A stretch of DNA of 32,000 nt, taken from positions 203,900 to 235,899 of the forward strand of contig NZ_JBDIYD010000003.1 in assembly GCF_039649255.1 (NCBI RefSeq), in the 5' to 3' direction. Source of the DNA: Dechloromonas sp. ZS-1. Its GTDB lineage: Bacteria; Pseudomonadota; Gammaproteobacteria; Burkholderiales; Rhodocyclaceae. The translations under genes and the position numbers were made by a program. The first letter of the stretch is position 1. The number at the start of each line of letters is the position of its first letter. Shown one piece after another: positions 10,924-32,000 of this stretch. The notes under the pieces were generated by a model. That model saw only the letters and a list, made by a program, of their open reading frames with translations. It was not told the DNA's origin and did no database searches.

Positions 10924-10926
10924 GCG

Positions 10927-14236: not shown

Positions 14237-14256
14237 TCCACGCCAGCCCCGCATGC

Positions 14257-14283: not shown

Positions 14284-14305
14284 ATTGGGGAACTCAACGC
14301 AAAAC

Positions 14306-14944: not shown

Positions 14945-14945
14945 G

Positions 14946-16187: not shown

Positions 16188-16528
16188 TGCACGTCGAGGA
16201 GTTCAACCTCGAAAATCAGCGTGGCGTTCGGCGGAATGACGCCGCCCGCGCCGTAAGCGCCATAGCCCAGATTGGACGGGATGGTCAGCTTGCGCGTGCC
16301 GCCCACTTTCATGCCTTGCACGCCTTCGTCCCAGCCCTTGATCACATGACCGCGGCCCAGCGGGAACTGGAAGGAATCATTGCGATCCTTGCTCGAATCG
16401 AACTTGCTGCCATCGGTCAGCCAGCCGGTGTAATGCACGGTCACGAACGCGCCGGCCAGGGCCTCGGCGCCGTTGCCTTCAACGGTGTCTTCGTAGATCA
16501 GGCCGGAGGCCGTGGTGATTTCAGCCAT
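16184..16528 (-). CDS. FKBP-type peptidyl-prolyl cis-trans isomerase
   Basis: 114 aa with [26 protein letters not shown] and LIFEVELL. Its stop overlaps the downstream start as ATGA. Confidence 0.9.
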
Positions 16529-16582
16529 GAAAAAGCTCCTTTTCGAAAGGCGCGAAGTCTATCATAAGCCATTGAAAAGCCT

Positions 16583-16610
16583 TTGACTTATCGGTTTTTT
16601 TCCGTATAAT
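16583..16610 (+). promoter_or_regulatory. sigma-70 promoter of rplU-rpmA
   Basis: TTGACT, 16 nt spacer, TATAAT, about 48 nt upstream of the rplU ATG. Confidence 0.6.
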
Positions 16611-16657
16611 GCGCGATCCTTTGCAGTACCCTTCGTTATTAATTCGGAGTCCAACTC

Positions 16658-16969
16658 ATGTATGCGGTCGTAAAAACCGGTGGTAAGCAGTATCGCGTTA
16701 CCGCTGGCCAAAAACTCAAAGTAGAACAGATACCGGCAGAAGTTGGCGCAGAAGTCACCCTCGATCAGGTCCTCATGGTAGGCGAAGGCGAGAGCGTGAA
16801 GATCGGCGCCCCCACCGTTGCTGGTGCCACCGTCAAGTGCACCGTGGTTTCCCACGGTCGTCACGACAAGGTCAAGATCTTCAAGATGCGCCGTCGTAAG
16901 CATTACCAGAAGCGTCAAGGCCATCGTCAGAACTACACCGAACTGCGCATCGACACGATCGCTGCCTAA
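16658..16969 (+). CDS. rplU: 50S ribosomal protein L21
   Basis: [14 protein letters not shown]... is the canonical L21 sequence. Confidence 0.97.
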
Positions 16970-16991
16970 GTTCAGAGAAGGAGCTAGTTAA

Positions 16992-17255
16992 ATGGCACAC
17001 AAAAAGGCAGGCGGTAGTTCACGTAACGGCCGCGACTCACAGGCAAAACGTCTTGGCGTGAAGCGCTACGGCGGTCAATTCGTTCTCGCCGGCAACATTC
17101 TGGTTCGCCAGCGCGGCACCGAATTCCACCCGGGCGAAAACGTCGGCTGTGGCAAGGACCACACCCTGTTCGCACTGAAGGACGGCATTGTCCAGTTCTC
17201 CATCAAGGGCGAAAAGAAGCGTCGCACGGTGACCATCGTTCCGGCCGCCGAATAA
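16992..17255 (+). CDS. rpmA: 50S ribosomal protein L27
   Basis: [24 protein letters not shown]... is the canonical L27 sequence. Confidence 0.97.
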
Positions 17256-17276
17256 TCGGCCCGGCGGAACCGAAGA

Positions 17277-17306
17277 AGCCCTATCCGCCGGATAGGGCTT
17301 TTTTTA
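17277..17306 (+). terminator. Rho-independent terminator after rpmA
   Basis: AGCCCTATCC-GCCG-GGATAGGGCT followed by TTTTTTT. Confidence 0.75.
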
Positions 17307-17379
17307 TTGCTGTGCAAATTACCCCAAAAAAGCAGGTCGACCGTCTGTGACGCGCCTGCCGTAGTTTGCAAAGCAATAA

Positions 17380-19649
<2,270 letters not shown>

Positions 19650-19671
19650 TCTAGAAAGCCACAAAAAGCAA

Positions 19672-19701
19672 AAGCCCCGTCAAAAGCGGGGCTTCTTTTT
19701 T
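19672..19701 (+). terminator. Rho-independent terminator after proB
   Basis: AAGCCCCG-TCAAAAG-CGGGGCTT followed by a T-run. Confidence 0.7.
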
Positions 19702-19748
19702 GCCTGCAATAACGGCACACCAGAAAGCAACACAAAAACAGCAGACAA

Positions 19749-19778
19749 TAAAAAACGGGTGCCGAAGCACCCGTTTTC
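19749..19778 (-). terminator. Rho-independent terminator of porin 1
   Basis: On the minus strand, ACGGGTGC-TTCG-GCACCCGT is followed by TTTTTTATT, 25 nt after the porin stop. Confidence 0.7.
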
Positions 19779-19799
19779 AGTTCTGAATCTAGCTAGGCC

Positions 19800-19832
19800 A
19801 GATTAGAAGGAGTGACGCAGGCCAACCATGTA
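19800..19832. repeat. 33-nt tract identical to 26837..26869 (stop codon and last 9 codons of both porins)
   Basis: AGATTAGAAGGAGTGACGCAGGCCAACCATGTA is present at both loci. I read and compared both copies directly. Confidence 0.9.
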
Positions 19833-20825
19833 GCCGGTGTAATCAGCGCCGTTACCGTTGGTGGTGCCGTTGTTAACCGGGTTGTTGTAGAAAGCGTAGT
19901 TCACGCCATCCTTGTTAGCCAGGTGGCTGTAACGAGCATGCACGATGGTGCGCTTGGAGAGCTCGTAGGTGTAGACAGCGGTCCACAGGGAAGCGCCGGA
20001 GTTAGCAACTTCACCAGCTTCGGTCTTGGTCTTGGCGGCCTTGGCGTATTCGAGACCAACGGTGTTCTTGCCGAAGGACTGAGCAACACCCAGGGAGAAG
20101 GCGTTACGCTTCAGGTAACCACCAGCAACATCGGTGTCAGCCTTGGTGTTGTCGTACAGAGCGGTCAGCTTGGTAGCGGTCGGCAGGGTGTAGACAGCAG
20201 CCAGACGGTAGACGCGAGCGTCAGCATTGTCGTTGCCCAGGGTACCAGCGGCGGAGGAATTCACAGCCTTGTGGTAGCCAGCACCAACGAACAGCGGGCC
20301 ATTGTCGTACTGACCAGCAACTTGGAAGGAACGGGCTTCAGCTTGGTCAGCACCGTTCTTCTGGGTTTCGCCGTTAACGTAAGCAACGGTACCAGTGAAA
20401 CCGCCAAAGGACGGGGAAACGTAAGCAACAGCGTTCTTGGCGCGGTCGTCAGCACCAGACTTAACGCCCTTGATGGCGCCGGTCAGGGAAGCGGTGGTAC
20501 CGAAGCCAGCAGCAGCCGGAGCCAGTTCAACCTTGGCACCGAAAGCGCGCAGCGGGTGGGTCAGGGTACCAGCAACAGCGGTACCGAAACCACCGGTCAG
20601 GCCCACGAAGGAGTCACGGTTGTTGTCGATAGCGCCGGTGTTGTCCGGAGCAACGGTGCTTTCGATCTGGAAGACAGCCTTCAGGCCGTTACCCAGGTCT
20701 TCCACACCCTTGAAGCCGATGTAGGAAGAGTTGCTGTCCAGGCGGCCAACGGTCGACTGGTTGTTGGACGGGGTAGCAGCGGCATTGCCAGAGGACTTAA
20801 CAAAAGCTTGGCCCAGATCGACCAC
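19803..20825 (-). CDS. Gram-negative porin, paralog 1 (reading frame continues to ATG 20909 but is broken by TAA at codon 3)
   Basis: Beta-barrel porin with C-terminal YTGYMVGLRHSF and codon usage like highly expressed genes. The tracked ORF starts at an internal GTG and lacks the signal peptide. In the same frame upstream is ATG CTT TAA ACG AAG ATT ATT GCT.. encoding ML*TKIIALALAAVAGSAAA, homologous to the signal peptide of paralog 2. Confidence 0.85.
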   Translation of the reverse strand: MVDLGQAFVKSSGNAAATPSNNQSTVGRLDSNSSYIGFKGVEDLGNGLKAVFQIESTVAPDNTGAIDNNRDSFVGLTGGFGTAVAGTLTHPLRAFGAKVELAPAAAGFGTTASLTGAIKGVKSGADDRAKNAVAYVSPSFGGFTGTVAYVNGETQKNGADQAEARSFQVAGQYDNGPLFVGAGYHKAVNSSAAGTLGNDNADARVYRLAAVYTLPTATKLTALYDNTKADTDVAGGYLKRNAFSLGVAQSFGKNTVGLEYAKAAKTKTEAGEVANSGASLWTAVYTYELSKRTIVHARYSHLANKDGVNYAFYNNPVNNGTTNGNGADYTGYMVGLRHSF

Positions 20826-21260
20826 ACCGTAAACGGTGACGTTGGTTTGAGCAGCGGCGGAACCGGCGACAGCGGCCAGGGCCAGAGCAATAATCTTCGT
20901 TTAAAGCATGCAAAAATCTGTCCTGATGGTTTCTTATAGTGCTTTATTTTCAATAACTTATAAAAAATACGCACTACAATCCTTGGAGCTGAAAACATGT
21001 CAAACACGAAGAGAATTCAACTTTTACTTTAAAAGACCTCGTTTTTTTAATTTAAAAGACCAAAGAGATCGGTTGTTTGCGCTGTTTTTAGCTTACACCG
21101 CATAATCTACGTTAGCATAATAAAAATTTTAAACTATTGTTTTAATTGAATATTTTTAACATCAACCTGAGCAAAATCCGTTACCGGCAAAACACGTCCG
21201 GATTGTCATTTAAAGGATGCACTTCAGGGTAGCAGAAGCGGTGCAGCCCTTCTCCTACCG

Positions 21261-21281
21261 AGCGTCAATTTCCTTGACGCT
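21261..21281. repeat. 21-bp palindromic site AGCGTCA-N7-TGACGCT (copy 1)
   Basis: AGCGTCAatttcctTGACGCT overlaps the first base of the small-recombinase stop codon. Second copy at 25259..25279. Confidence 0.8.
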
Positions 21282-21850
21282 CAGACCAGTTCAACTGCAT
21301 TACGCAGCACACCTGGACGCAGATCAATGTAGCGTTGCGTCGTGGCCATATTGGCATGCCCGGCCAAGGCCATCATCACCCGCACGCTGACACCCTTTTC
21401 AGCCAAGTTCGTCAAAAAGCCACGGCGACCACTATGGCTGCTGGCACCGTCTAAGCCTGCTTGCTTGTAAATGCCGTTGACCACCTGCGTCAGCGAGTTG
21501 GCGGTGAAAGCGTCGCTGCGCTGACTGGCGAAGAGGGCCTGCTTCGGGTCCGCCACTGTTACGCCCTGCAGGTAGCGGGTAAGTTCAGCTCGCATGCGCT
21601 CATTCAGCAGCACCGTGCGACCACGCTTGCCCTTGGTTTGTTCTGCAGTGAGATTGATTTCGTCACGCACGCTGCCATCACTGGACACTACATCGCAGAT
21701 ACGAACCGCAGCCACTTCACCAATCCGCATACCCGCCAAGTGCGTGAGCAACAGGATGACCCTGTTACGCTTCGCATTCTTGGTTTTCGCTACATAGTCC
21801 AGCAGGCGCTGCAGTTCGCGCTCGTTCAGTGTTCTTGCATGCTTCGTCAT
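21281..21850 (-). CDS. small tyrosine recombinase, catalytic domain only (about 189 aa, FimB/FimE-sized)
   Basis: Start at MTKHARTL (ATG 21850). Catalytic signature R (AGMRIGE), K (TKGKRGRTV), H-x-x-R (HSGRRGF), H (LAGH) and Y (TQRYI). There is no N-terminal core-binding/SAM-like domain. About half of aligned residues are identical to 30785..31357 (by-eye alignment). Confidence 0.85.
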   Translation of the reverse strand: MTKHARTLNERELQRLLDYVAKTKNAKRNRVILLLTHLAGMRIGEVAAVRICDVVSSDGSVRDEINLTAEQTKGKRGRTVLLNERMRAELTRYLQGVTVADPKQALFASQRSDAFTANSLTQVVNGIYKQAGLDGASSHSGRRGFLTNLAEKGVSVRVMMALAGHANMATTQRYIDLRPGVLRNAVELV

Positions 21851-21886
21851 TTTCGCTTCTGGCTTTGATAATGAAATCGCGCATGC

Positions 21887-21897
21887 ATTATGTTTTC
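21887..21897 (-). promoter_or_regulatory. conserved GAAAACATAAT element (putative -10 region) upstream of small recombinase 1
   Basis: The identical 11-mer lies exactly 39 nt upstream of the ATG of both small recombinase genes (also at 31394..31404). Confidence 0.4.
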
Positions 21898-22160
21898 GTA
21901 TCGGCAACTTTCCTACCCCACTTTTTCGTTTCGCTCGACCATTAAAAATCAATGACTTAGCGCCACTGATAATATTTTGTGCAAAACATGCTCAGTCGTA
22001 TTTAGCCCGAAACGTGTGGCAAATCTGCCACTGCGATCGGGTCCGCGGCGAAAAACGCCCTGCTAAAGGCTCGTGCGGACACAGTCTGACATGGGTAACT
22101 GAACTTGGGCGAAAAGCGGGGGTTGGTCTTGCGGTGTGCGCCACAATGGGGAGTAAAGGT

Positions 22161-22181
22161 TTTATTACTTCAAGCAATAAA
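22161..22181. repeat. 21-bp near-palindrome TTTATTA-CTTCAAG-CAATAAA
   Basis: Degenerate copy of the perfect palindrome at 23527..23547. It lies 33 nt downstream of the 424-aa ORF. Confidence 0.7.
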
Positions 22182-22213
22182 ATGCAGCCCAGCACTCCCT
22201 ATATGTCGGATAA

Positions 22214-23488
22214 TTAACTCTTGGACTGTGCCGCCTTCTTGGCGCCCGACTTAGATTTTCTGGCTTTTTCAGCTGCTTTTTCGGCTCGCTTACGGTCTGC
22301 AACTATTTTCCCCTGGAATTCGGCGTTAGCCTTGGCAATGCGTGCCTCGCACTTGGCCTTGTTCTCTGCAGCTTTCTTTACTGCCTCGTATCGTTTAAGC
22401 AGCTGCTTGCTTTTTTTATCGGCCAAGTGGCGCTCCTCATCACGCCTGATATCGAACCACGGTTTGTGGCCTGCACGCTTGGCACTCTCGGTGATGTAAT
22501 CGAAAATCAGCCGCTCCAGTTGCTCCGTGACCGGGATCTGCAGCTGCAGTTCGAGTTGATCGAGTGGATCCTTGTGGGCCAGCACGAGGCAATAGCCCCT
22601 GTCATCGTTGCTGAACCGATGGCGGTTGCTGGAATCGAGCTGCACCCGGGCCACAACCGGTAAGCGCCAAAGCATCTGGTAGCTGGCCGCACGATCTGCT
22701 TGTTTGCCATCCGTGTGCAAAACGCCTGCATCAGCCTTGGCAACCTTTGCAAATGCATGGCGAATTTTCTCCAACCCGCCCATCTCGTCGACGAAGGCTT
22801 GGAAGCTCTTAGGCTCGATCTCGTAGTTGTATGCCAGCACAAAGGAGCGCGAATAACTCAGCAGGGTCTTGTCCTTGGCATCCTTGAACAAGAACTTCAG
22901 CAGCACCGTCGCCGTTGGTGTGTCGTAGTGGGTCGTCACCCCATCGATGGTCTTCAGCACGCTCCTCAACTCGTCAAACACGCTGAGCGCTTGCTCTGAG
23001 TTGCAGATGGCACGGTAAAGAGCGTAGGCGTCTGCGAGGATGGTGAAGAGTTTTTTACGGGTCTGCGTTTCGAAGGCCCGCACCCGCTGACGCAGCACCT
23101 TGGCGGAGGTCATGAGCTGCCAGCGATCAGCCAGCTCATGAAGCTCTCGCTGGGACAGCCTCACCCCTTCCTTGAACCTGTCGCACTCCGGATACTGATG
23201 CGCCAGTTCGCTTTGCACCAAGATCGGCTTCCCTTGCTGCTCGCGCATGCGGATATAGGCGGCGTCAGCTTCGGCATCGAGCTTTGCCTGTGCCTCGGCG
23301 GCTGCTTGTTTGGCAGCTGCCCGCTTATCAGCATCGACATACCACTGTTTCTGCTCGCGGAACATCCGCTCCCGATCCATTGGCGGCCTACCTGTTCGCT
23401 CAAACAGCCCTGCAAAACTGGCGATCTTGGCATCGACCTGTCGGTAGATTTCCTCGTCCGAGGGGATGTAGGTGGCATCTGCAGACAT
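22214..23488 (-). CDS. hypothetical protein with Lys/Ala/Glu-rich termini; distant paralog of 29100..29879
   Basis: 424-aa ORF. The central region aligns by eye with the 259-aa protein of module B: LFTILADAYALY/LYAILAECYAF, YDTPTATVLLKFLF/KDTPLMTRIVRAVF, FVDEMGGLEKIRHA/WIEQEGGVQEIRMS, YCLVLAH/CVLLATQ. Confidence 0.7.
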   Translation of the reverse strand: MSADATYIPSDEEIYRQVDAKIASFAGLFERTGRPPMDRERMFREQKQWYVDADKRAAAKQAAAEAQAKLDAEADAAYIRMREQQGKPILVQSELAHQYPECDRFKEGVRLSQRELHELADRWQLMTSAKVLRQRVRAFETQTRKKLFTILADAYALYRAICNSEQALSVFDELRSVLKTIDGVTTHYDTPTATVLLKFLFKDAKDKTLLSYSRSFVLAYNYEIEPKSFQAFVDEMGGLEKIRHAFAKVAKADAGVLHTDGKQADRAASYQMLWRLPVVARVQLDSSNRHRFSNDDRGYCLVLAHKDPLDQLELQLQIPVTEQLERLIFDYITESAKRAGHKPWFDIRRDEERHLADKKSKQLLKRYEAVKKAAENKAKCEARIAKANAEFQGKIVADRKRAEKAAEKARKSKSGAKKAAQSKS

Positions 23489-23526
23489 AACGGCGGTATC
23501 TCAGTATCCTGGATAAAGGCCACCAG

Positions 23527-23547
23527 TTTATTGCTTAAAGCAATAAA
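23527..23547. repeat. perfect 21-bp palindrome TTTATTGCTT-A-AAGCAATAAA
   Basis: Lies 39 nt upstream of the 424-aa ORF start, so it is operator-like. Confidence 0.8.
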
Positions 23548-23708
23548 TTCGCCAGCACTGCCGTCCGTGATCTCGATGCCCTATGTGACACTTGTGCTGA
23601 TTGTTACTGGCACTGCACATGATCGCCCTTCGAGCGATCAACTCGTTGTCGTTGCCGTCGCTCACTGCCGTTCGTGACACAACGCCATCTCGTATTTTGA
23701 ATGAAGAA

Positions 23709-23740
23709 GCTCAATCGAAGATTGAGTGCTTTTTGATTTT
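23709..23740 (+). terminator. possible Rho-independent terminator inside a 0.8-kb non-coding stretch
   Basis: CTCAATC-GAA-GATTGAG followed by TGCTTTTTGATTTT. No upstream plus-strand ORF is present. Confidence 0.4.
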
Positions 23741-24303
23741 GTTAGATTCGGATTGCTCGGTCTGACCATGCCCAGTGTAGGGCATCGTGGTCCTGTTATT
23801 TTGTTGAGTTCCTCAAAACTCGGGCTATCACACAGCTTGCTCACGCAAGCGAAGGCAGGTTCTGCGATCATCCTTCATTACGTGCTGTCCTTACGCAGAT
23901 CGTTGCAGCCATAGCCAAGCACACCAACGACCTTGTGGGTTTACGTCGTCCCCACTCACTTTTTTCACGCATCGCTGCGCTACCAACCACGACAACATCG
24001 CAAACGGAACTGCCACAGAGGGGCGTCGTTTCAGGCATCCAGCCATCAGCTGGGTAGTGCGATGAGGCGAACAGCAAGAAGTTCGTTTGCTTACCGTCAC
24101 ACATCAGAACGGATTTCGCGGCACAGTAACAGTCGGCGTGCCAACCTTCGCCTTGCTTGTATGTTTTTATTTATGCAGGCTGATATGAAAAGCCGTGAAA
24201 TCCGGCGAAAAGCCATTCAAATCCCATGCTTCTCTCGGTTGCCCATGCGCCGAGGCCGACCATACAGTTGTTCTACCCGGTAACGACAGCCAAGGACAAC
24301 GCA

Positions 24304-24744
24304 ATGAGCACCCTTTCCAATCTCAAGTTGATTACCAGCAAACGCCAAGCCTCGGGCGGTGCCGTGGCCCATCGGCGTGGCAAGCTGGCAGAAAAGATCG
24401 ACGAGCAGATCGCACTGATCACCGCGCAGCAAGAGGGCCGCGTCTACGCCCCAAAGAAGACCAAGATCATCGTGAACAAGGCCACTGGTCAACGCGGCAG
24501 CATCGAGGTTATCAAGCGGGTCAAGGAATGGTTTTGGTACGGCGAAGGCGGCAAGATCCATCTCAACATCCGCTACGGCAGCAAGATCATCGAACTGGCC
24601 AAGGGGAAAAATGCCATCGAGGTAGCCGACACCAAGGAACTGCTGGATACCCTGGCCTTGATTCGAACGGCGGTCATGGCTGGCGAGTTGGACAGCCAGA
24701 TTGAAGCCACCAGCGAAAAACTTCGTGCCGTATTCACCAGGTAG
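24304..24744 (+). CDS. hypothetical protein
   Basis: Start at MSTLSNLK (ATG 24304, AAGGA 9 nt upstream). The sequence is plausible and globular (KRVKEWFWYGEGGKIHLNIRYGSKIIELAKGKNAIEV). I recognise no family. Confidence 0.6.
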   Translation: MSTLSNLKLITSKRQASGGAVAHRRGKLAEKIDEQIALITAQQEGRVYAPKKTKIIVNKATGQRGSIEVIKRVKEWFWYGEGGKIHLNIRYGSKIIELAKGKNAIEVADTKELLDTLALIRTAVMAGELDSQIEATSEKLRAVFTR

Positions 24745-24778
24745 CCCAAAAAGGATAACTACAACAAAGGGAGAGACC

Positions 24779-25138
24779 ATGCGGCTATTTGAATTTACCA
24801 ACGCGGAAGAACAACTGGCGCTGCTGCGAACCATCATTGACAACACATGGCGGGCCATCGAGCAACAGGCCCAGCAACAAAGGCAGGCCGCCAGTGAGAC
24901 AAAGACAAAAACTGCATCGAAACCCCGTAAGGGCAAAGGTAGCAAAGAAGCAAAGTCAATCACACCGCCGCGCAGCCGGTCTGCTCCACCACCGTCTCCT
25001 GCTCAGCCTGTTAAAAATTTGCCGACCAACACGAAGCCCATATCGCCGCCTCAGCGTAATCGCGTTGGCAACATCAAGCCTTTTGGCGCGAAAACGCAGT
25101 TTTCCGGCGCTGATCAGGCTGCAGCAAGCCATCGATGA
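24779..25138 (+). CDS. hypothetical protein with a Pro/Ser/Lys-rich low-complexity tail
   Basis: Start at MRLFEFTNAEEQ (ATG 24779, GGGAGAG RBS). The N-terminal 40 aa look helical and the rest is low complexity. Confidence 0.5.
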   Translation: MRLFEFTNAEEQLALLRTIIDNTWRAIEQQAQQQRQAASETKTKTASKPRKGKGSKEAKSITPPRSRSAPPPSPAQPVKNLPTNTKPISPPQRNRVGNIKPFGAKTQFSGADQAAASHR

Positions 25139-25210
25139 AGTGGCGATGTGGAAGACGCCAAAAATGGTCTGTGCCCGGCAATCTGTGTCGCGCAGTTTTT
25201 TCGGGTGAGC

Positions 25211-25237
25211 TACTTAAGTTTTCTGCCTGGTGATTTT
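25211..25237 (+). repeat. 27-nt conserved box upstream of the integrase (25/27 identical to 31950..31976)
   Basis: TACTTAAGTTTTCTGCCTGGTGATTTT versus TACTTACGCTTTCTGCCTGGTGATTTT. Weaker similarity extends about 20 nt further upstream. Confidence 0.85.
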
Positions 25238-25258
25238 TGACCATACCCCCTGCCCTGC

Positions 25259-25279
25259 AGCGTCATTTTTATTGACGCT
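25259..25279. repeat. 21-bp palindromic site AGCGTCA-N7-TGACGCT (copy 2)
   Basis: AGCGTCAtttttatTGACGCT lies 22 nt upstream of the integrase ATG. Confidence 0.8.
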
Positions 25280-25300
25280 TGACCAGCACTGCCAAGGATC

Positions 25301-26587
25301 ATGACACGCAAGACCCCACACACAGCGCCGACTGCCACCTACCAGCAGGTGTTCGAGCAGTGGCAACGTTCATCGACCAAGCGTCGTATGACCACCGTTG
25401 TGGACTATCAGAAAGTTTTCGATGCGTTTGCCAGCTTTGTCCAGCACAAGGACTTGGCAAGCATCGAGAGGAAAGATGTGCTGGCCTTCCGCGATCACTT
25501 GCTGACGCTGGGGCAAAGTGCCGTAACCGCTAATCATAAGGTGGGCATTCTCAAGGGCATTTTCAGGGTCGCTGTGGAATACGAACAGATCCCCAACAAT
25601 CCCGTAGCCGATGTGCGTTCGATAGGCACGCAGCGGCAAAAAGCTCGTGTGGCCTTTAGCGCCGATGATCTCAATCGACTATTTCAGTCGGAGGTGTTCA
25701 CTGCTGGCCTGCGTCCCAAAGGTGGTGGCCGAGATGCGGCTTACTGGCTACCGTTACTGGCACTATTTACTGGGGCGCGAGTTGAGGAGTTGGCGCAGCT
25801 GTTGGTTTCCGATGTCAGGCACGAAGAGGGACTGGGGCACTATCTCAATATCACCGACGAAGCTGCACATGCTCAACTGAAAAACGCAGCGTCCCGTCGT
25901 CGCATTCCGCTACACACCGCTGTGCTCGATTGTGGTTTTCTGGAGTATCTGGCTCGATGCAAGCGCCCCGGATTGCTGTTTCCTGATCTGCGCGCGAACT
26001 CACGCCGCAAGTTGGGGGGCTACTTCAGCACGTGGTTTTCAATTTATCTGCGGCAGAAAATGGGCATCCACGATGCTCGTAAAGTCTTCCATTCGTTTCG
26101 CCATACCTTCAAAGATGCCTGCCGAGCCGTGGGCATCGAAGAGGAAGTGCATGATGCGCTGACCGGCCATACGGGTAATTCAGTCAGCCGGCGCTATGGC
26201 AACGATCAGTATCCGTTAGAACCGCTGTTCGAGGCCATAAATCGGCTTGAGTTTGCAGGGCTTGATCTCAGCCATCTTTACACCCGGCCGGTATCGCAGA
26301 AACTGTCGATGAATGAGCTCAGGATGATTTCGGCCTATCACGGCATCATCGTGGCTTTTCCTACGCCCAAAACCAGGCGTAGCAGTCAGCCCTTCGTGCT
26401 GGCAATGTGCGATGGGCTCCAAGCTGGTTTCGATATCGCTGCCAACAAACCCATCTTCGGCGAGTTACCGCGCAACAAGCAGATGCTGGTCAATGCGTGG
26501 GTGGAAATACACAAGGAAGAACTGGTGGCCAACTGGCACGCTGGGCAGATCACGGGCGAGTTTTTTAAACTGGACCCGCTACGCTGA
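25301..26587 (+). CDS. tyrosine integrase (phage integrase family) with a C-terminal DUF4160-like extension
   Basis: N-terminal SAM-like/core-binding region, then a catalytic domain with R (TGARVEE), H-x-x-R (HSFRHTF), H (TGH) and Y (RRYG). The last roughly 90 aa (ISAYHGIIVAF..GELPRNKQMLVNAWVEIHKEELVANW..KLDPL) resemble DUF4160. Confidence 0.9.
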   Translation: MTRKTPHTAPTATYQQVFEQWQRSSTKRRMTTVVDYQKVFDAFASFVQHKDLASIERKDVLAFRDHLLTLGQSAVTANHKVGILKGIFRVAVEYEQIPNNPVADVRSIGTQRQKARVAFSADDLNRLFQSEVFTAGLRPKGGGRDAAYWLPLLALFTGARVEELAQLLVSDVRHEEGLGHYLNITDEAAHAQLKNAASRRRIPLHTAVLDCGFLEYLARCKRPGLLFPDLRANSRRKLGGYFSTWFSIYLRQKMGIHDARKVFHSFRHTFKDACRAVGIEEEVHDALTGHTGNSVSRRYGNDQYPLEPLFEAINRLEFAGLDLSHLYTRPVSQKLSMNELRMISAYHGIIVAFPTPKTRRSSQPFVLAMCDGLQAGFDIAANKPIFGELPRNKQMLVNAWVEIHKEELVANWHAGQITGEFFKLDPLR

Positions 26588-26607
26588 ATGTCGTTCAAAA
26601 CGACAAA
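26587..26607 (-). repeat. 21-bp site AATGTCG-TTCAAAA-CGACAAA (family TGTCG-TTTTGAA-CGACA, inverted spacer)
   Basis: Overlaps the last base of the integrase stop codon. The spacer is the reverse complement of that in sites at 29817, 29916 and 30764. Confidence 0.75.
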
Positions 26608-26746
26608 CTGCGGGCAGCGTGATACAGGCGGGCGGCGCAAACTTGCAACAGGCCCCCTACAAACGCTGATCGCTTGAGGCCAAAGGCTCGGGCTGCTGGG
26701 CTGGGCTAAAAAGGCGCTATAGACGGCTGCAGGTGCTGATTTGCTT

Positions 26747-26767
26747 GATGTCGTTTTAAACGACACT
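26747..26767 (+). repeat. 21-bp site GATGTCG-TTTTAAA-CGACACT (same family, variant spacer)
   Basis: Read directly. It lies 160 bp from the previous copy, and the two flank a GC-rich 140-bp spacer. Confidence 0.7.
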
Positions 26768-26786
26768 TTTTCAACAGCACCATAGC

Positions 26787-26820
26787 AAACAGCCACCCGA
26801 AGGTGGCTGTTTTGGTTTCT
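26787..26820. terminator. terminator hairpin between the integrase and porin 2 (homologous to the porin 1 terminator)
   Basis: AAACAGCCACC-CGAA-GGTGGCTGTTT followed by TGGTTT. Position and loop match the hairpin 3' of porin 1. Confidence 0.55.
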
Positions 26821-26836
26821 AACTAAGTCTTAACTT

Positions 26837-26869
26837 AGATTAGAAGGAGTGACGCAGGCCAACCATGTA
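26837..26869. repeat. 33-nt tract identical to 19800..19832
   Basis: Same sequence at the 3' end of porin 2. Confidence 0.9.
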
Positions 26870-27994
26870 ACCGGTGTAGTTAGCACCAGCAGCATCAACG
26901 GTAGCAGCACCTTGGTTAACCGGGTTCAGGTAGAAATTGGTGTTCATTTCGTCCTGATTGGCCAGACGGCTGTAACGAGCATGCAGCATGGTGCGCTTGG
27001 ACAGCTCGTAGGAGTAAACAGCAGTCCACATGCTAACCTTGGTTTGGTCTGCGGTACCAGCATCGGTCTTGATCTTGCCGCTTTGTGCATATTCAACACC
27101 AACGGTGTTCTTGCCGAAGGACTGAGCAACACCCAGCGAGAAAGCATTACGCTTGATGAAGCCATCACCGCTAACCTTGGTATTGTCGTACAGAGCGGTC
27201 AGCTTGGTAGCGGTCGGCAGGGTGTAAACAGCGGCGAGACGAATAACGCGAGCGTCAACACCGTCGGCGGCAGCAGTAACCGGAGTCGCTTGGAAGGAGT
27301 TGTAACCCAGTTGCGGTTCTTTAGCCTTGTGGTAGCCAGCACCAACAAACAGCGGGCCATTATCGTACTGGGCAGCAACTTGATATGCGCGAGTATTCAC
27401 GTTTGCGTCAGCAGTTGCAGACGCAGCAGCATTGGTCTTTTGCTCACCATTGATATAAGCAACGGTACCCGAGAAACCGCCGAAGGACGGGGAAACGTAG
27501 GCCACTGCATTATTTGCACGGTTATCAGCACCAGTGTGCAGACCAGCAATAGTACCCGTAACGGAAGCCATCGTACCGAAACCAGCAGCAGCCGGGGTCA
27601 ATTCAACTTTGGCACCGAAAGCACGCAGCGGGTGAGTCAGGTTACCTGCGACAACAGTACCGAAACCACCGGTCAAACCAATATAAGCATCGCGGGTACC
27701 GTAGGTGTTGGTGGTGCCAATCACGCCAGTATCAGCAGCAAAACCAACTTCATACGTGAACAGTGCCTTCAGGCCATTGCCCAGATCTTCAACACCTTTG
27801 AAGCCGATGTGGGAAGAGTTGTTGTCCAGACGACCAACGGTGCCCTGTTCGGTGTTAGCAACGGAAGAGCCAGAGGACTTAACAAAAGCCTGACCCAGAT
27901 CAACTGCACCGTAAACGGTAACGTTGGATTGGGCGAAAGCGGCGGAAGAGGCAGCAGCAGCAACGGCCAGAGCAATAATCTTCTTCAGCAGCAC
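26840..27994 (-). CDS. Gram-negative porin, paralog 2 (intact)
   Basis: 384 aa with signal peptide MLLKKIIALAVAAAASSAAFA and C-terminal GYMVGLRHSF. It has a GTG start with no obvious Shine-Dalgarno. Confidence 0.9.
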   Translation of the reverse strand: MLLKKIIALAVAAAASSAAFAQSNVTVYGAVDLGQAFVKSSGSSVANTEQGTVGRLDNNSSHIGFKGVEDLGNGLKALFTYEVGFAADTGVIGTTNTYGTRDAYIGLTGGFGTVVAGNLTHPLRAFGAKVELTPAAAGFGTMASVTGTIAGLHTGADNRANNAVAYVSPSFGGFSGTVAYINGEQKTNAAASATADANVNTRAYQVAAQYDNGPLFVGAGYHKAKEPQLGYNSFQATPVTAAADGVDARVIRLAAVYTLPTATKLTALYDNTKVSGDGFIKRNAFSLGVAQSFGKNTVGVEYAQSGKIKTDAGTADQTKVSMWTAVYSYELSKRTMLHARYSRLANQDEMNTNFYLNPVNQGAATVDAAGANYTGYMVGLRHSF

Positions 27995-28366
27995 AAATCT
28001 GCTTTTAGGTTAGCAAATATTTTTCCTTTTAATAACAATTGACTAAATTAATTTCCGTTTGGTTTTTCTGCCAAAACATTACATTCCAAACGAATTTTTA
28101 TACCAATTTTTATGCTAAACGACTGCAAATTTCGGTATAAAAGGCTGAGCTTTTTTCGCCATTCACATAAAACGCTCAGTTTTAACTTGCCATCAAGCCA
28201 GAAAGACCAAATAAAAACCGAAGGCAACAACGGCGGCGCAATGGAATAAAATGCTTTGTTCTAAAGCGCCCTATCGGCTTTACCGCGCAAAATGGCCTTT
28301 TACATTTTTTTTGGGATGCAAAGATGCCCGCACGAAGCGGGCTATCTTTAGCAGCGCAGCTACTGA

Positions 28367-29023
28367 TCAGCGCAACTGACGTAACCCGGCACGCATTACA
28401 TTGTGCGCAACATTACGCACCGAGCCATTACAGCCGGCAATGATGGCTTGTAGTTGCGTGTCGTCTAAAACGACGTTGAGTTGAGCACAGATTTTTTGTG
28501 CGAATGGCATTAACTGCTCAGTTTTCGCCGCGTTCATTTCAACGAGCACGCACCGATCGAGTAGGCCACGCTCGATAGCCGAAATATGATTAGTGGTTAA
28601 AACGAAGATTGCTCGGTTCGTGTTCATTGCCGACTTCAGACTTTGCTGGGCCAACTTTGTTAAGTTATCGACCTCGTCGAGTATGAAGTAATGAAGGCTG
28701 CTGCTGTTAAGGGATAACACACTAAGCTGCTTTTTGATCAGCTCCATAACTTGCGGCCCAGTAAAGCCTTGCTGGCACCCAATGAACTCGGGTTGCATAA
28801 CCAAATCGTCATTATATTTAATCTGTTCAATAGCCTCTGGCAGCAGATTTGCCAGTGCTGTTTTTCCTGTTCCCCATACGCCATACAACAGGATGCCGCT
28901 CTTACCAAAAGCGGGCAATGGCTCCTCGCCGCTGATAATGTCGCAGATACGCTGCTTGGATTCGTCGTTTCCAAAGACAATATCGGCAACAGAGGTTGGC
29001 TGAAGATTATTGATATCAAACAT
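28367..29023 (-). CDS. AAA+ ATPase, RFC/clamp-loader-like, short form (218 aa)
   Basis: Walker A GVWGTGKT, Walker B FILDEVD, sensor-1 VLTTN, SRC-like DRC (LLDRCVLVEM) and sensor-2-like GSVRN. It lacks the C-terminal collar domain of clamp-loader subunits. Confidence 0.8.
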   Translation of the reverse strand: MFDINNLQPTSVADIVFGNDESKQRICDIISGEEPLPAFGKSGILLYGVWGTGKTALANLLPEAIEQIKYNDDLVMQPEFIGCQQGFTGPQVMELIKKQLSVLSLNSSSLHYFILDEVDNLTKLAQQSLKSAMNTNRAIFVLTTNHISAIERGLLDRCVLVEMNAAKTEQLMPFAQKICAQLNVVLDDTQLQAIIAGCNGSVRNVAHNVMRAGLRQLR

Positions 29024-29099
29024 AGTAATTTTCCTTTTAAAAGTGATTTCATTTGCACGGGCAGCAGCAGCTAAACTGCTGCCCGTTGCTATTTCGTTG

Positions 29100-29879
29100 T
29101 TAAGCTGCAGCCTTCATTGCACCGTCAGCTTCGTTTGCTGCCGTCAGTTCCTTTAGCGCCGCTTTGTGCTTTTCTTGTTCGCAGCCATACAACGACACAA
29201 ACGCTGCATTGACTGCTGTATTGCTGCGCAGCACAGCACGAACGGCATAGGTGCTATCGGCTTGTTGCGTTGCCAGCAGCACACAATCGCAGCCGACAAA
29301 ATCGCTGTCGCTGAGGCCAGACAATGCTTCCGAATGGACATTGGCCAGCACAGGCAAACTGTCAAAGTTTTGCTGTGCAATTTCTACTTTTTGCTTCGGA
29401 CTGACAAACGTGGCACTACGCGACATACGAATTTCTTGCACCCCTCCTTCCTGCTCAATCCAGTCAGCCAGGTTAGTTGCCAGAACTTGTTCGGCTTTGG
29501 CTGCACGCAGCACGAGTGAGTAGGTGCTGAGACGACGACGATCTATGTCGCCGAAAACGGCACGCACAATGCGGGTCATTAACGGCGTATCTTTTTTAAT
29601 GCGATAGCCGCGCTCTTTGTAGAATGCTTCGAGTGCAGCGCTGCGCTGTTTCGACTCAGTCACGCCCAGCTCGCCAGCGAAGGCGTAGCACTCGGCAAGA
29701 ATGGCGTAGAGCTGTTGATTGCTCGTGCGATAAGCCCCCTCTTCCCATTCCTTGCGGCTGCATTCCAAGCGGCTAAGCGTGTCGATTGGCGAATAGGTTT
29801 TTGAGGGAGCCACACGGGTGTCGTTTTGAACGACATTGGCGGTTTCGTTGGCTACGGACTTGATAACGATTGCTTCCAT
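29100..29879 (-). CDS. hypothetical protein, distant paralog of 22214..23488
   Basis: 259-aa ORF immediately upstream of the AAA+ gene and on the same strand. The by-eye alignment blocks are listed under the 424-aa ORF. Confidence 0.7.
   Translation of the reverse strand: MEAIVIKSVANETANVVQNDTRVAPSKTYSPIDTLSRLECSRKEWEEGAYRTSNQQLYAILAECYAFAGELGVTESKQRSAALEAFYKERGYRIKKDTPLMTRIVRAVFGDIDRRRLSTYSLVLRAAKAEQVLATNLADWIEQEGGVQEIRMSRSATFVSPKQKVEIAQQNFDSLPVLANVHSEALSGLSDSDFVGCDCVLLATQQADSTYAVRAVLRSNTAVNAAFVSLYGCEQEKHKAALKELTAANEADGAMKAAA
29817..29837 (+). repeat. 21-bp site GGTGTCG-TTTTGAA-CGACATT
   Basis: Lies inside the 5' end of the 259-aa ORF (codons NVVQNDT). Confidence 0.7.
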
Positions 29880-29915
29880 TTTTAACTCCTTTGTTAGTGA
29901 TTAAGTTGTTGTCTG

Positions 29916-29936
29916 AATGTCGTTTTGAACGTCGTT
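29916..29936 (+). repeat. 21-bp site AATGTCG-TTTTGAA-CGTCGTT
   Basis: Lies in the divergent intergenic region between 29879 and 30015. Confidence 0.75.
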
Positions 29937-30014
29937 CAGCACAGGAGTTATTGTCTTACTTTAGGGTAAAATGCGAGACTGACTACATATTCGACGCAAT
30001 TTACTTGATAAGAA

Positions 30015-30764
30015 ATGAAAAGCCGATTTCTTGCACTACACCCCTTGCTCGGGACTAAGAACAAGCCAGCAGCCCTACATTTACAAGAACGCAGTCCCTA
30101 TTACTGGTGGTGGGCGTATTTACGAAGGAATGCAGACTACTTGGCTTGCTGCGAAGCTGGTGGTGTCGGCGAACTGGGCTGGCTATATGCCGATTTCGGT
30201 GATGTGCGCACCGATGATTTCAGAAGCTGGTGGGGAGGCAGCGAGCAGCGCGGGGCCAAGCTTTTTGGGGAACAAGCCATTGAACATCGTCTGACTGAAA
30301 TCACCGAAGTCGACGTGTTTCAAAATCATAAGGACATCGGACTTGCCGTTATTTCAGTCAATCTGAATATCAACAAGCGGAAGTTGCAGCAGTATTTTGC
30401 TAATTGGCTGACAACAGTCCATAAAGGTAAGCCCGGGCGGCGCTCACTGGGCAAGGAAGGCGTTAGTAGCGCCAAGTATCCATTACATCGAAATTTCAGC
30501 CAGCATAATCTGCGGCTGATGCTGGCCGTCTATGATGCGTGGACAGCCAATCAGGCCTTACCGAAGCCCGAGCGGAAAACAATGTGGCAAGTGGGCGAGG
30601 CATTGAAGCTGGTGCCTACTGCGATTACCAAAGCCAGAGATACGCAAGCCGAACGCACCAACAAGCTCAACGTAATGACCGTCGCCGTCAGTCGGTATGT
30701 CAAACAGGCGAAGGCCATCATTGCCAATACGGCGAAAGGCCAGTTTCCCAACAGCAAGCTATGA
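30015..30764 (+). CDS. hypothetical protein with YYWWWAYLRRN motif (possible ICE-type transcriptional-regulator-like domain)
   Basis: 249-aa ORF. The N-terminal W-x-YLRRN-x-x-Y motif resembles the WEFLRRNPAY signature of proteobacterial DUF6499/DUF2285-type regulator-like proteins. This is from memory and unverified. The RBS is weak. Confidence 0.6.
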   Translation: MKSRFLALHPLLGTKNKPAALHLQERSPYYWWWAYLRRNADYLACCEAGGVGELGWLYADFGDVRTDDFRSWWGGSEQRGAKLFGEQAIEHRLTEITEVDVFQNHKDIGLAVISVNLNINKRKLQQYFANWLTTVHKGKPGRRSLGKEGVSSAKYPLHRNFSQHNLRLMLAVYDAWTANQALPKPERKTMWQVGEALKLVPTAITKARDTQAERTNKLNVMTVAVSRYVKQAKAIIANTAKGQFPNSKL

Positions 30765-30784
30765 ATGTCGTTTTGAACGACGTT
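30764..30784 (+). repeat. 21-bp site AATGTCG-TTTTGAA-CGACGTT
   Basis: Fills the gap between convergent stops. It overlaps the last base of the 249-aa ORF stop and ends 1 nt before the stop codon of small recombinase 2. Confidence 0.8.
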
Positions 30785-31357
30785 TTAAATCAAGTTGGCC
30801 GCTGCTTTGAGTTGCGACGGACTGCTGTAAAGATAGACTGCCGTTGTTGAAATACTGCGGTGCCCAGCCAGCGTCTTCAATATGTGGATCGAAGTGCCTT
30901 TGTTAGCCAAATTTGTGAGGTAACTGCGCCGCCCACTGTGACTGCTTGCGCCTTCAATGCCCACTTTGCGATAAAGGGAGTGGAAGAACTGAGCGAGAGT
31001 GTTGGCAGTAAAACCGCGCGTTGCTTCTTTCTGTGTGGCAAAAAGCACAGCTTCGATTGAAGTAGGTGGAACTGCTTTTACATAAGCAGCCAATTCCTTT
31101 TGTAGTTTGCTGCCCAAATACACCGTTCTGCTGTGCCGTCCTTTCGTCTGCTCTGCTGCCAAGTAAATTTCCTCTTTCACAGCACCGCTACTGTGCAGCA
31201 CGTCGCAGTAGCGTAGCCCCGCAATTTCCTTACAGCGCATTCCAGCCAAGTGCGACAACAACACAATGGCACGATTGCGTTCGGCGTGTTGTCGCGTCGA
31301 CACATAGTCTAATACGCGTCGCAGTTCGGTGTTGTCAAAAACTTTCGCTTGCGCCAT
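30785..31357 (-). CDS. small tyrosine recombinase, catalytic domain only (190 aa), paralog of 21281..21850
   Basis: AGMRCKE (R), TKGRHSRTV (K), HSGRRSY (H-x-x-R), LAGH and AVYL (Y). GGGAGGAAG RBS. Confidence 0.85.
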   Translation of the reverse strand: MAQAKVFDNTELRRVLDYVSTRQHAERNRAIVLLSHLAGMRCKEIAGLRYCDVLHSSGAVKEEIYLAAEQTKGRHSRTVYLGSKLQKELAAYVKAVPPTSIEAVLFATQKEATRGFTANTLAQFFHSLYRKVGIEGASSHSGRRSYLTNLANKGTSIHILKTLAGHRSISTTAVYLYSSPSQLKAAANLI

Positions 31358-31393
31358 TGCTTCCTCCCAAAATCAAATAATTCGCGTGCAGTT

Positions 31394-31404
31394 ATTATGT
31401 TTTC
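31394..31404 (-). promoter_or_regulatory. conserved GAAAACATAAT element upstream of small recombinase 2
   Basis: Same 11-mer and the same 39-nt distance to the ATG as at 21887..21897. TTGCGA lies 18 nt upstream. Confidence 0.4.
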
Positions 31405-31497
31405 TTTGTTTTATGATTCGCAACCAAAATTGCAATCCGTTAAGTCGTTGAATTACAAATGAACCAAATACAATAGTAATTTTATTTATTTTTATGA

Positions 31498-31857
31498 CTA
31501 CAAAAAGCCTCGATTCGATCTGACATTAAACCAATTGCGCACTTCTTGATAATAATCCTTTGGCTCATCGGCTACATCTTGATCCAAAGTCATCTCATCG
31601 GTCTCCTCACTCCTAAAGTCAAAGCGCTCAATCGCATAGTGCACAGACTTGAAAGCCAAAGTATCCAAATTTTCTTCGATGTAATCAGCCCCTTCACCAT
31701 TGAAGAGCCAGTCAACTGCATACTCAAACTCTCCATTTCGATCGGCTTTCTCAAGCCATTCAGAAATGATGTAATTTCCTTGTTCAATCATTTCCTCTTG
31801 AGCATTCCAGATCATCTTGTGCAGGGCGCTGTGGAGGTCATTCATTTCTTCACTCAT
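31498..31857 (-). CDS. small, highly acidic hypothetical protein
   Basis: Start at MSEEMNDL (ATG 31857, GGAG RBS). My count over 119 aa gives 29 Asp+Glu against 10 Lys+Arg. Confidence 0.6.
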   Translation of the reverse strand: MSEEMNDLHSALHKMIWNAQEEMIEQGNYIISEWLEKADRNGEFEYAVDWLFNGEGADYIEENLDTLAFKSVHYAIERFDFRSEETDEMTLDQDVADEPKDYYQEVRNWFNVRSNRGFL

Positions 31858-31949
31858 CAAAAATCTCCAAATCAAATTAGACAGAGGGCCAAAGACCAAA
31901 ACCGTAAATTATGCCAAATTTTACAGTAGCGCGAAAATTTTTAGGGAAG

Positions 31950-31976
31950 TACTTACGCTTTCTGCCTGGTGATTTT
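31950..31976 (+). repeat. second copy of the integrase-upstream box
   Basis: 25/27 identical to 25211..25237, at the right edge of the window. Confidence 0.85.
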
Positions 31977-32000
31977 GCACCACTACACTACGTATAACTG

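Follow-up and report, generated by a model that had tools for sequence, protein, structure and literature searches.

A stretch of 32,000 nucleotides from Dechloromonas sp. ZS-1 (contig NZ_JBDIYD010000003.1, positions 203,900 to 235,899; hereafter the window, numbered from its first letter) carries, downstream of proB, two Porin_4 genes on the same strand, whose proteins are 66% identical, together with cargo genes and site-specific recombinases. The question raised by this locus is how the two porins and their companions came to stand there, and from which copy a porin can be made. We find at this locus two or more elements of about 7-9 kb, each with an integrase, which belong to one family widespread in the Rhodocyclales. 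Probably, this is a family of mobile elements specific to the major-porin locus, which hold silenced porin alleles and in which recombination at a short core near the 5' end of the porin gene picks the allele to be expressed. A first-pass annotation of the same DNA had arrived at a different arrangement, namely units of porin, cargo and integrase added in tandem at the 3' end of a resident porin gene, each bringing its own porin allele.

That annotation had advised a search for empty sites in related genomes, and three close relatives (loci L165, L166 and L167) provide them. In all three, trpG-trpD-trpC are followed by a single porin and then, on the opposite strand, by proB, obgE, L27 and L21; integrase and cargo are absent, and the flanks are 96-97% identical to the window. 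The ancestral order at the locus is trpG-trpD-trpC, major porin, and proB on the opposite strand. The contigs with empty sites also carry the alleles recovered in a search for homologues of the porin next to proB (porin 1; 19803-20909, minus strand), which returned P0122, P0123 and P0133, 71-87% identical and with the N-terminus MQKKIIALALAAVAGSAAAQ.

Comparison with these relatives locates the break. L166 matches window positions 9802-20919 at 93.6% over 11.1 kb, and the match stops about 10 nucleotides before the porin 1 ATG. The host flank includes obgE (17413-18531, plus strand) and proB (18528-19649, plus strand), an open reading frame encoding ProB that is 96.6% identical to L166 at the nucleotide level. 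The native proB-porin intergenic region (19650-19802), including the porin terminator and hairpin, is 97.4% identical. From proB through the porin 1 terminator, the hairpin and the last codons, identity to L166 amounts to 96-100%, so that no foreign junction can be accommodated on this side except within the coding sequence. In line with this, a 50-nucleotide sliding comparison revealed, at the 3' end of the porin, only such mosaicism as also distinguishes the two island-free alleles; at 20910, identity falls sharply, from a level of about 0.9 to one of about 0.3. The homology shared with the empty site consequently breaks at codon 2-3 of porin 1 (about 20900-20910). At the junction the native side reads AGGAGATTTTCTG ATG CAA AAG AAG ATT ATT GCT and the window side GGACAGATTTTTGC ATG CTT TAA ACG AAG ATT ATT GCT, the two being the same from GAAGATT / GAAGATTATTGCTCTGGCC on. 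Attachment at a 33-nucleotide tract shared by the porin 3' ends, as first proposed, is contradicted by this position of the break and by the native 3' side. An island that targets the 3' end of a gene was also considered as a class and rejected, as the 3' untranslated region and last codons of porin 1 are native and the 33-nucleotide tract is unexceptional.

Judged by its sequence, porin 1 falls within the range of resident alleles. At the nucleotide level it is 89% identical to the porin of L165 and 80% to that of L166, two island-free alleles that are about 83% identical to each other; porin 1 is nearer to the L165 allele than the L166 porin is, and its signal-peptide codons are identical to those of both. 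The second porin of the window (porin 2; 26840-27994, minus strand) is 79% identical to L165 and 77% to L166, and its nearest alleles, at 72%, include a resident porin located after trpC in another genome (L168). Since porin alleles are mosaic, the assignment of porin 1 as resident is not one of near-identity. The unit delimited earlier, consisting of porin 1, cargo 1 and integrase A, nevertheless comes apart, because porin 1 is resident-like and the 97% identity of its flank extends through its terminator.

The point at which both window porins are disconnected from their native upstream region is a 19-bp core in the signal-peptide codons, upstream of which an AT-rich arm replaces the native sequence. 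The exact 19-mer GAAGATTATTGCTCTGGCC occurs twice in the window, at 20880-20898 in porin 1, where homology both to the empty site and to porin 2 begins, and at 27965-27983 in porin 2, 7,085 bp away; by chance, 0 copies are expected. Both copies are on the minus strand and therefore form direct repeats bounding a unit of 7,085 bp. This repeat had been overlooked in the first-pass annotation. The same 19-mer is present at the start of the resident porin in L165-L167 and in L001, and, as the core lies inside a conserved coding region, the repeat alone is not proof of an attachment core; the rightmost junction of the island falls outside the window. On the element side of copy 1, arm X (20899-21280, minus strand; G+C 0.46) consists of ATG CTT TAA ACG and an AT-rich spacer in place of the native leader; on the element side of copy 2, arm Y (27984-28366, minus strand) consists of GTG CTG CTG AAG and, likewise, an AT-rich spacer.

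The consequences for the two reading frames are direct. Porin 1 begins ATG CTT TAA ACG AAG ATT ATT, with a stop at codon 3. Its first canonical in-frame start is a GTG at 20825, without a signal peptide, and it has neither a ribosome-binding site nor the native leader. Both same-strand genes reported before are indeed Porin_4 genes, but porin 1 is not open over 19803-20909, owing to the TAA at codon 3. In the public annotation (P0121, 19803-20891, 363 amino acids) porin 1 is given an ATT start and the N-terminus 'MIALAL', which hides both the stop codon and the lost N-region of the signal peptide. Porin 2 has an open reading frame with a GTG start and no stop near it (GTG CTG CTG), and it too lacks a ribosome-binding site and the native leader; promoter-like matches in a promoter scan were at chance level and are uninformative on its expression. 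Neither window porin is still joined to the native upstream elements, namely the promoter, the leader, the ribosome-binding site and the ATG CAA AAG start. The idea that the elements simply add a further working porin is thereby unsupported, and both copies are presumably silent.

Across the related loci, porin 5' ends fall into two classes. In the native class, a leader CAACTTCTCG-N4-GAGAGGT ... AAGGAG is followed by ATG CAA AAG AAA. This 5' end is present in all integrase-free resident porins whose 5' end was read (L001, L003, L006, L009, L011, L012, L016 and L165-L167), as well as where the 5' side is host DNA or holds no cargo (L081, L082, L086_R, L090_R and L105); the native-type porin of L090 has trpC in its right flank. 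In the silent class, the leader is exchanged from codon 2-4 for unrelated sequence, often with a stop, and the flanks, where known, are usually element cargo. Porins with cargo on their 5' side start ATG TAA AAG ACG (L090_L), ATG TAA GCG (L091_L), ATG CTG TAA (L086_L) and ATG CTT TAA (window porin 1), and a further one, L120_R, has no in-frame ATG. The start ATG TAA AAG is found in the right-hand porin of L091 and in L103, and GTG TAA AAG in the integrase-adjacent porins of L100, L102 and L106. A search for the native leader motif across the window returned no match. Both window porins thus belong to the silent class, and the expressed copy is to be expected beyond 32000, next to trpC.

The native leader merits attention in its own right. 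The examples at L001 12430-12520, L081 9050-9140, L166 9880-10000 and others share, across genera, CAACTTCTCG-N4-GAGAGGT and the ribosome-binding region AACTAACCACTAAGGAG, and may represent an undescribed regulatory leader. Rfam searches of the window, L081, L001 and L090 assigned no family to this leader or to the hairpin at the porin 3' end.

Inverted arrangements of the porins also exist. In Thauera linaloolentis (L082 12222-13161), two head-to-head porins carry 257-nucleotide inverted repeats, 98% identical and starting at the ATGs, which enclose a 426-bp segment with the native leader; with an integrase adjacent, the arrangement is a candidate invertible porin switch. An older draft assembly (L083) ends exactly at this porin ATG. 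In L109, two oppositely oriented porins have an integrase between them, inside the invertible segment. These inverted layouts point to the 5' end as the place of exchange.

What has been brought to the locus is, in each case, more than a porin. Each element of the family comprises a DUF4160-fused integrase tail to tail with a porin, a small recombinase, an RFC-like AAA+ ATPase, a DUF6641 protein and several proteins of unknown function. In the window, integrase A (25301-26587, plus strand; 428 amino acids) consists of an N-terminal SAM-like domain, a Phage_integrase domain (PF00589) and a C-terminal DUF4160 domain, and its catalytic residues R160, K194, H264, R267, H290 and Y299 are invariant in 25 homologues. 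The distance from its end to the porin 2 stop codon, put at about 250 bp before, was measured as 253 bp. More than 3,000 homologues of the integrase are detectable, and the named top matches come from Thauera, Dechloromonas, Accumulibacter and other Rhodocyclales. Of 30 loci that have both a full-length integrase homologue and enough right flank, at least 21 have the 3' end of a tail-to-tail porin at most 450 nucleotides from the integrase, and 24 have it at most 2.5 kb away. An integrase homologue followed by a tail-to-tail porin occurs, for instance, on a Thauera contig and in T. linaloolentis. In L086, L090 and L091, a porin is followed by homologues of the 249-aa and 259-aa cargo proteins described below (p249, p259), the AAA+ ATPase, small recombinase, DUF6641 protein and integrase, and then by a second porin; the left porin of L086 is itself preceded by the end of another integrase, so that the tandem array recurs. 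The linkage in 21 of 30 loci, the syntenic cargo of L086, L090 and L091 and the empty sites together bear out the original view of the cargo-plus-integrase modules as mobile-element units.

A small tyrosine recombinase accompanies each module. Small recombinase 1 (21281-21850, minus strand; 189 amino acids; PF00589, E 7e-29; phrog_216) and small recombinase 2 (30785-31357, minus strand; 190 amino acids) both consist of the Phage_integrase catalytic domain only and, by eye in pairwise alignment, carry the R, K, HxxR, H and Y motifs. They are 47% identical (E 8e-65), in agreement with their earlier designation as paralogues. Small recombinase 1 matches Xer-like and invertase-like models below cut-off, and small recombinase 2 is 70-72% identical to its counterpart in the Thauera-type elements. 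A box upstream of integrase A (25211-25243, plus strand), also conserved in L164, had been noted to recur at 31950; the second copy (31950-31982, plus strand) is 88% identical. A further paralogue of integrase A, to which it is 57% identical, is listed for ZS-1 (P0052). It would fit the integrase predicted to start near 32040, after the box at 31950.

Base composition sets these modules apart from the flank. The G+C content is about 63% as far as proB; from 19.6 kb on, it amounts to about 42-58% in all the remainder of the window, and windowed composition shows both the lower G+C of the cargo and the AT-rich spacers 5' of the two porins, as the first reading had it. The G+C content at third codon positions (GC3) is 0.66 for porin 1, 0.52 for porin 2, 0.62-0.75 for cargo 1 (between arm X and integrase A) and 0.48-0.58 for cargo 2 (beyond arm Y). 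On the host side, rplU and rpmA (16658-17255) have a GC3 of 0.63-0.69, against 0.82-0.84 for obgE and proB. In view of these values, the GC3 of porin 1 is compatible with that of a native gene expressed at a high level and does not by itself indicate that the gene is foreign.

The break at the 5' end relative to the empty sites, the repeated core, the two classes of 5' end and the linkage of integrase and porin are the observed parts of the model that we favour. A circular element would consist of an arm, the core, a porin body that lacks a promoter and has a disabled start, its terminator, the tail-to-tail integrase and the cargo. This circle would recombine site-specifically with the 5' core of the expressed porin, an exchange that the integrase would catalyse. 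The incoming allele would then be read from the host promoter and start, and the former allele, shoved behind the cargo and joined to the arm, would be silenced. Repeated rounds would build up a tandem archive. Applied to the window, the order would be porin 1 as the old resident, then element X (20899-27983; arm, cargo 1, integrase A and porin 2) and, from 27984, element Y, which would consist of its arm and cargo 2 and continue past the window with an integrase and a third porin. From this layout we infer the order in which the elements arrived, and we would place the expressed porin, the second integrase and trpC beyond 32000. Any pair of cores could then exchange, so that units would be lost or rearranged by excision and reshuffling and a different porin would be made. 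As the exchange point is predicted from sequence to within 19 bp, the proposal is directly testable.

Several observations weigh against exchange at the 5' core as the full account. The integrase of L164 is identical to integrase A in amino acid sequence (100%), and the nucleotide sequences are 97.5% identical from 24434 through the stop, but directly after it the two loci diverge, with an unrelated spacer and a neighbouring porin that is 30% identical. Breaks just past the integrase stop also separate L093 from L110, and L084 from L085, L086 and L089. If the 5' core were the sole site of exchange, the integrase and its neighbouring porin should travel together, and breaks of this kind conflict with that. 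The GC3 of porin 2 is like that of cargo 2 and not that of cargo 1, with which porin 2 is paired in the model, base composition being informative for pairing porins with elements in the window only and not in L086, L090 or L091. The GTG TAA porins of L100 and L102 border the host gene leuS, with the integrase in a conserved host neighbourhood, and hence some silent copies are something other than displaced residents within an island; conversely, the porin of L088 is flanked by cargo yet has a plausible start. The label of porin 1 as resident rests on 89% versus 79% identity to L165 (porin 1 versus porin 2) and on the signal-peptide codons. Finally, no transfer or replication genes were recognised in the cargo.

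The leuS-linked loci form part of a clade (L100 3121-7028 and L102, compared with L105 and L096) in which the integrase lies in a conserved host neighbourhood and its neighbouring porin has, upstream, the native leader in some loci and a GTG TAA arm in others. Such loci suggest that the system also exists in resident forms, which may have been domesticated.

The breaks past the integrase stop are what one would expect if, as in the first-pass annotation or a variant of it, a silent unit of porin, cargo and integrase inserts at or after the 3' end of the resident porin or just past the integrase stop. The expressed resident would then stay by trpC, and silent alleles would be activated later by a second exchange at the 5' core. 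The comparisons between loci with the same integrase (L164; L093 with L110; the Thauera set) favour such a site, as does GC3, which pairs porin 2 with cargo 2 and porin 1 with cargo 1. An attP adjoining the integrase gene is, moreover, the usual layout. Further support comes from L090, in which an 87-nucleotide direct repeat with one mismatch covers the 3' end, hairpin and terminator of both porins, and from a TTGGTGCT-like motif that recurs after porin terminators. On the other hand, identity to the empty site is 96-100% all the way from proB to the last codons of porin 1, and porin 1 is no more divergent than resident alleles are among themselves. The spacer and terminator of L164 differ from those of the window, though both would be element-borne under this account, and the common codon at which the silent copies are cut is left unexplained. 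The 3' features themselves, as detailed below, are generic to porins. On balance, we regard insertion at the 3' end as unlikely.

The 33-nucleotide identical tract (19800-19832 and 26837-26869) is indeed present at both porin stops and reaches 3 nucleotides past the stop codon, as had been reported. Two longer stretches of identity between the porins, of 44 and 39 nucleotides, lie inside the genes, so that the tract ranks only third in length; it codes for the conserved C-terminal strand YMVGLRHSF, and its last 17-20 nucleotides also occur in the porin of the integrase-free genome L001. It is a generic porin feature, and the proposal of an attachment site there is not supported. Downstream, the homologous loop terminators assigned to the two porins were recovered as TTCG-loop hairpins at both, of which that of porin 2 meets the T-run criterion on the opposite strand only. 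The terminator of porin 1 lies at 19751-19778 on the porin strand and is followed by a hairpin over its stop (19781-19808), most of which is inside the intergenic region; a proB terminator precedes them at 19670-19696, and all three were placed within or across the native proB-porin interval. At porin 2, the terminator hairpin (26787-26812) and the hairpin over the stop (26817-26845, for the most part) are the two hairpins of the integrase A-porin 2 spacer (26588-26839). The stop-overlapping hairpin and a TTCG terminator also accompany the proB-linked porins of the integrase-free L001, L002, L003, L009, L011, L016 and L027, which makes them features of the porin family and not evidence for an attachment site. 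The hairpin and terminator were accordingly dropped as primary attachment site, being present in integrase-free relatives, with the break from the empty site at the 5' end.

Independently of these considerations, the hairpin of about 12 bp starting at the last codon and the stop (TTCTAATC...GATTnAGAA) is conserved in structure in many genera, with compensating changes in the inner stem, and may be a stability element of the mRNA 3' end. In L164 (2155-3215, compared with 26588-27994 of the window), the hairpin after the porin stop is nearly the same as that of window porin 1.

An extension of the favoured model would accommodate both kinds of break. Elements might trade porins with the host by way of two sites, the 5' core and a site just past the integrase stop or porin terminator, perhaps with both recombinases taking part. 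Integration at one site and excision at the other would install the element's allele behind the host promoter, and the former resident allele would be carried off, silenced by the stop codon of the arm. Such an exchange would explain why the same integrase is found beside unrelated porins, why silent alleles resemble local host alleles, why porin 2 has the composition of cargo 2 and why two tyrosine recombinases are kept per element. We put it forward tentatively, at much the same low likelihood as insertion at the 3' end. If true, it would amount to recombinase-mediated cassette exchange occurring in nature, by which the alleles of a phage receptor are both archived and spread within a bacterial population.

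Recombination at the 5' core by a dedicated recombinase, in either form, must also be set against RecA-dependent homologous recombination or gene conversion, in which the signal-peptide codons and the 3' end would serve as homology arms and the constant junction would mark the end of homology. Homologous systems to which it can be likened are pilE/pilS in Neisseria and sapA in Campylobacter fetus. Porin alleles are mosaic even between island-free relatives, silent copies resemble local host alleles and not each other across genera, and long identical tracts occur at the 5' end (257 nucleotides at 98% in T. linaloolentis and at least 51 nucleotides in L090), all of which would suit such a process. 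At the ZS-1 junction, however, only 19 nucleotides are shared between the end of the arm and the point at which porins 1 and 2 diverge, which is short for RecA-dependent exchange and makes a purely homologous mechanism less likely. Two tyrosine recombinases are, furthermore, conserved in the elements, the integrase is tightly linked to porins, and the arms keep an ATG or GTG and partial native similarity around the start, as hybrid attachment sites do. We consider this explanation improbable. Plain tandem duplication of a porin segment followed by divergence, the alternative named at the outset, could draw on the same-strand porins with 66% identity and on some gene families shared by the modules, but it is refuted by the divergence of the cargo (47% between the small recombinases, 25% over 106 amino acids between the 424-aa and 259-aa proteins) and the presence of the family in other genera, quite apart from differences in gene order and content, the greater similarity of small recombinase 2 to its Thauera-type counterpart than to its neighbour in the window, and the single porin without cargo in relatives with 96-97% identical flanks.

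Other classes of element were examined as well. A scan of the window found no tRNA or tmRNA genes, ruling out a tRNA gene as the target of the island. Searches of plasmid, phage and IMG/VR sequences with the integrase returned only distant relatives (at most 47% identical) without the DUF4160 tail. With no close relatives among phages or in IMG/VR, and PHROG matches confined to the integrases, the clamp-loader-like ATPase and two families of unknown function, a prophage or phage satellite was rejected.

The remaining cargo is largely without recognisable function. Defence-system, phage and NCBIfam profiles matched only the integrases, the RFC-like ATPase, DUF6641 and two phage families of unknown function. 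In module 1, the 424-aa protein (p424; 22214-23488, minus strand) gave no family match in profile searches, and the DUF6641 protein (24226-24744, plus strand) is found upstream of the integrase in at least 10 related loci. In module 2, the AAA+ ATPase (28367-29023, minus strand; 218 amino acids) is like clamp loaders and RFC small subunits and is conserved cargo in L081, L084, L086, L088, L090 and L091. It is followed by the conserved 259-aa protein (p259; 29100-29879, minus strand), the 249-aa protein (p249; 30015-30764, plus strand), small recombinase 2 and an open reading frame for a product of 133 aa (31498-31899, minus strand). No family matched p259, PDB sequence searches with p259 and p249 gave no match, and an AlphaFold model of p259 from the single sequence was unusable (mean predicted local distance difference test score 37.5). 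The 424-aa and 259-aa proteins had been called paralogues; a remote similarity exists (pairwise E 7e-6), limited to 25% identity over 106 amino acids.

A number of side observations concern these modules. Between the divergent genes for p424 and the DUF6641 protein, about 740 bp (23489-24225) contain no convincing open reading frame and may be a regulatory region or an RNA gene. The DUF4160 tail of integrase A (26330-26584, residues 343-428) has a weak similarity, short of the cut-off, to DhiT, the toxin of a type II toxin-antitoxin system (NF048015, E 3.6e-6), and L110 has a free-standing DUF4160 gene between integrase and porin. The orientation of the p259-AAA+ pair relative to the integrase is the same in the window and L088 and opposite in L086, L090 and L091, and in L094 the integrase is inverted relative to its cargo; judging from these layouts, internal inversions seem to be common in the family. 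A palindrome, ATGTCGTTYWRAACGAC, of 17-21 bp is present in six copies (26588-26606 and 26748-26766 in the integrase A-porin 2 spacer, 28458-28476, 29818-29836, and 29917-29935 and 30765-30783 on either side of p249), corresponding to 12 strand matches versus 0.28 expected by chance. All copies are confined to the interval from the stop of integrase A to small recombinase 2, and most are intergenic. Palindromes of a related kind are found after the stop codon of the integrase in L164, L086 and L090, and in the gaps separating cargo genes in L087, L088 and L090. These palindromes may be operators or a second recombination site. A different palindrome, TTTATTGCTTNAAGCAATAAA (22161-22181 and 23527-23547), brackets the p424 gene of module 1 and may be the counterpart there of the module 2 palindrome.

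Solutes enter Gram-negative cells mainly through general porins, which frequently serve also as receptors for phages and bacteriocins and as targets of predators. If the favoured model is true, the elements would provide a reversible and horizontally transferable change of the surface in which the old allele is kept as a silent back-up, and would join integrative elements with antigenic and phase variation, fields that are usually apart. Dechloromonas/Azonexus, Accumulibacter and Thauera dominate phosphorus and nitrogen removal from wastewater, where phage pressure shapes community stability. As silent copies are annotated as normal porins, for example porin 1 with its ATT start, counts of functional porins in these genomes are inflated. 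Full-text literature searches turned up neither a report of porin-linked integrases nor one of silent cassettes of porin genes, and the stacked elements and promoterless porins point to an undescribed way of swapping the main surface pore.

Among known systems, the closest in layout are expression-site switches that exchange at the 5' part of a gene, such as vsa/HvsR of Mycoplasma pulmonis, the Moraxella pilin inversion by Piv, the outer-membrane-protein shufflons of Bacteroides fragilis and sapA of Campylobacter fetus. As in these, silent-type copies at the porin locus lack promoter and start, the exchange point would be a conserved 5' coding sequence, a recombinase gene is adjacent, and a single site would bear the promoter, as judged here from L081, L086, L090 and the empty sites; T. 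linaloolentis and L109 even have two porins in inverted arrangement. In contrast to inversion switches, the cores of the window are direct repeats, inverted versions being seen only in L082 and L109, and exchange between direct repeats would excise or integrate DNA instead of inverting it. Moreover, each silent copy is part of a unit of 7-9 kb that has an integrase and cargo to itself, and the absence of these units from close relatives marks them as mobile and not as a fixed chromosomal switch. The target also differs, being a general-diffusion porin in free-living Betaproteobacteria.

Integrons offer a second parallel, in that a tyrosine recombinase places promoterless cassettes behind one promoter and distal cassettes form a silent archive. 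Here, by contrast, the 'cassette' would measure 7-9 kb and carry its own recombinases, and the exchange point lies inside coding sequence. An integron as such was rejected, the best integron-integrase score being 40 bits against a cut-off of 265 and confined to the small recombinases; the repeat scan found no attC-like repeats bounding the window porins, and attC hairpins are absent. Lambdoid Lc and NmpC are phage-borne porins that alter the cell surface after lysogeny, and similarly show a mobile element supplying an alternative general porin. They have their own expression signals and reside in prophages elsewhere in the genome, whereas the ZS-1 element has no phage genes and its allele would depend on the promoter of the resident porin.

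With gene-end islands and integrative and conjugative elements, the ZS-1 elements have in common a tyrosine integrase, the conserved end of a conserved gene as target and tandem arrays. Elements e14 and phage 21 use icd, and SXT uses the 5' end of prfC. SGI1 integrates in the 3' end of trmE (PMC6531882), and tandem arrays of it at one site are known (PMC2297512). Such islands bring only a short gene end that keeps the target working; the ZS-1 element, unlike them, would bring a whole alternative gene body, take over the host promoter and start, and disable the old body. By analogy, then, the logic of the porin elements resembles that of expression-site switches and integrons, and their vehicle resembles that of gene-end islands.

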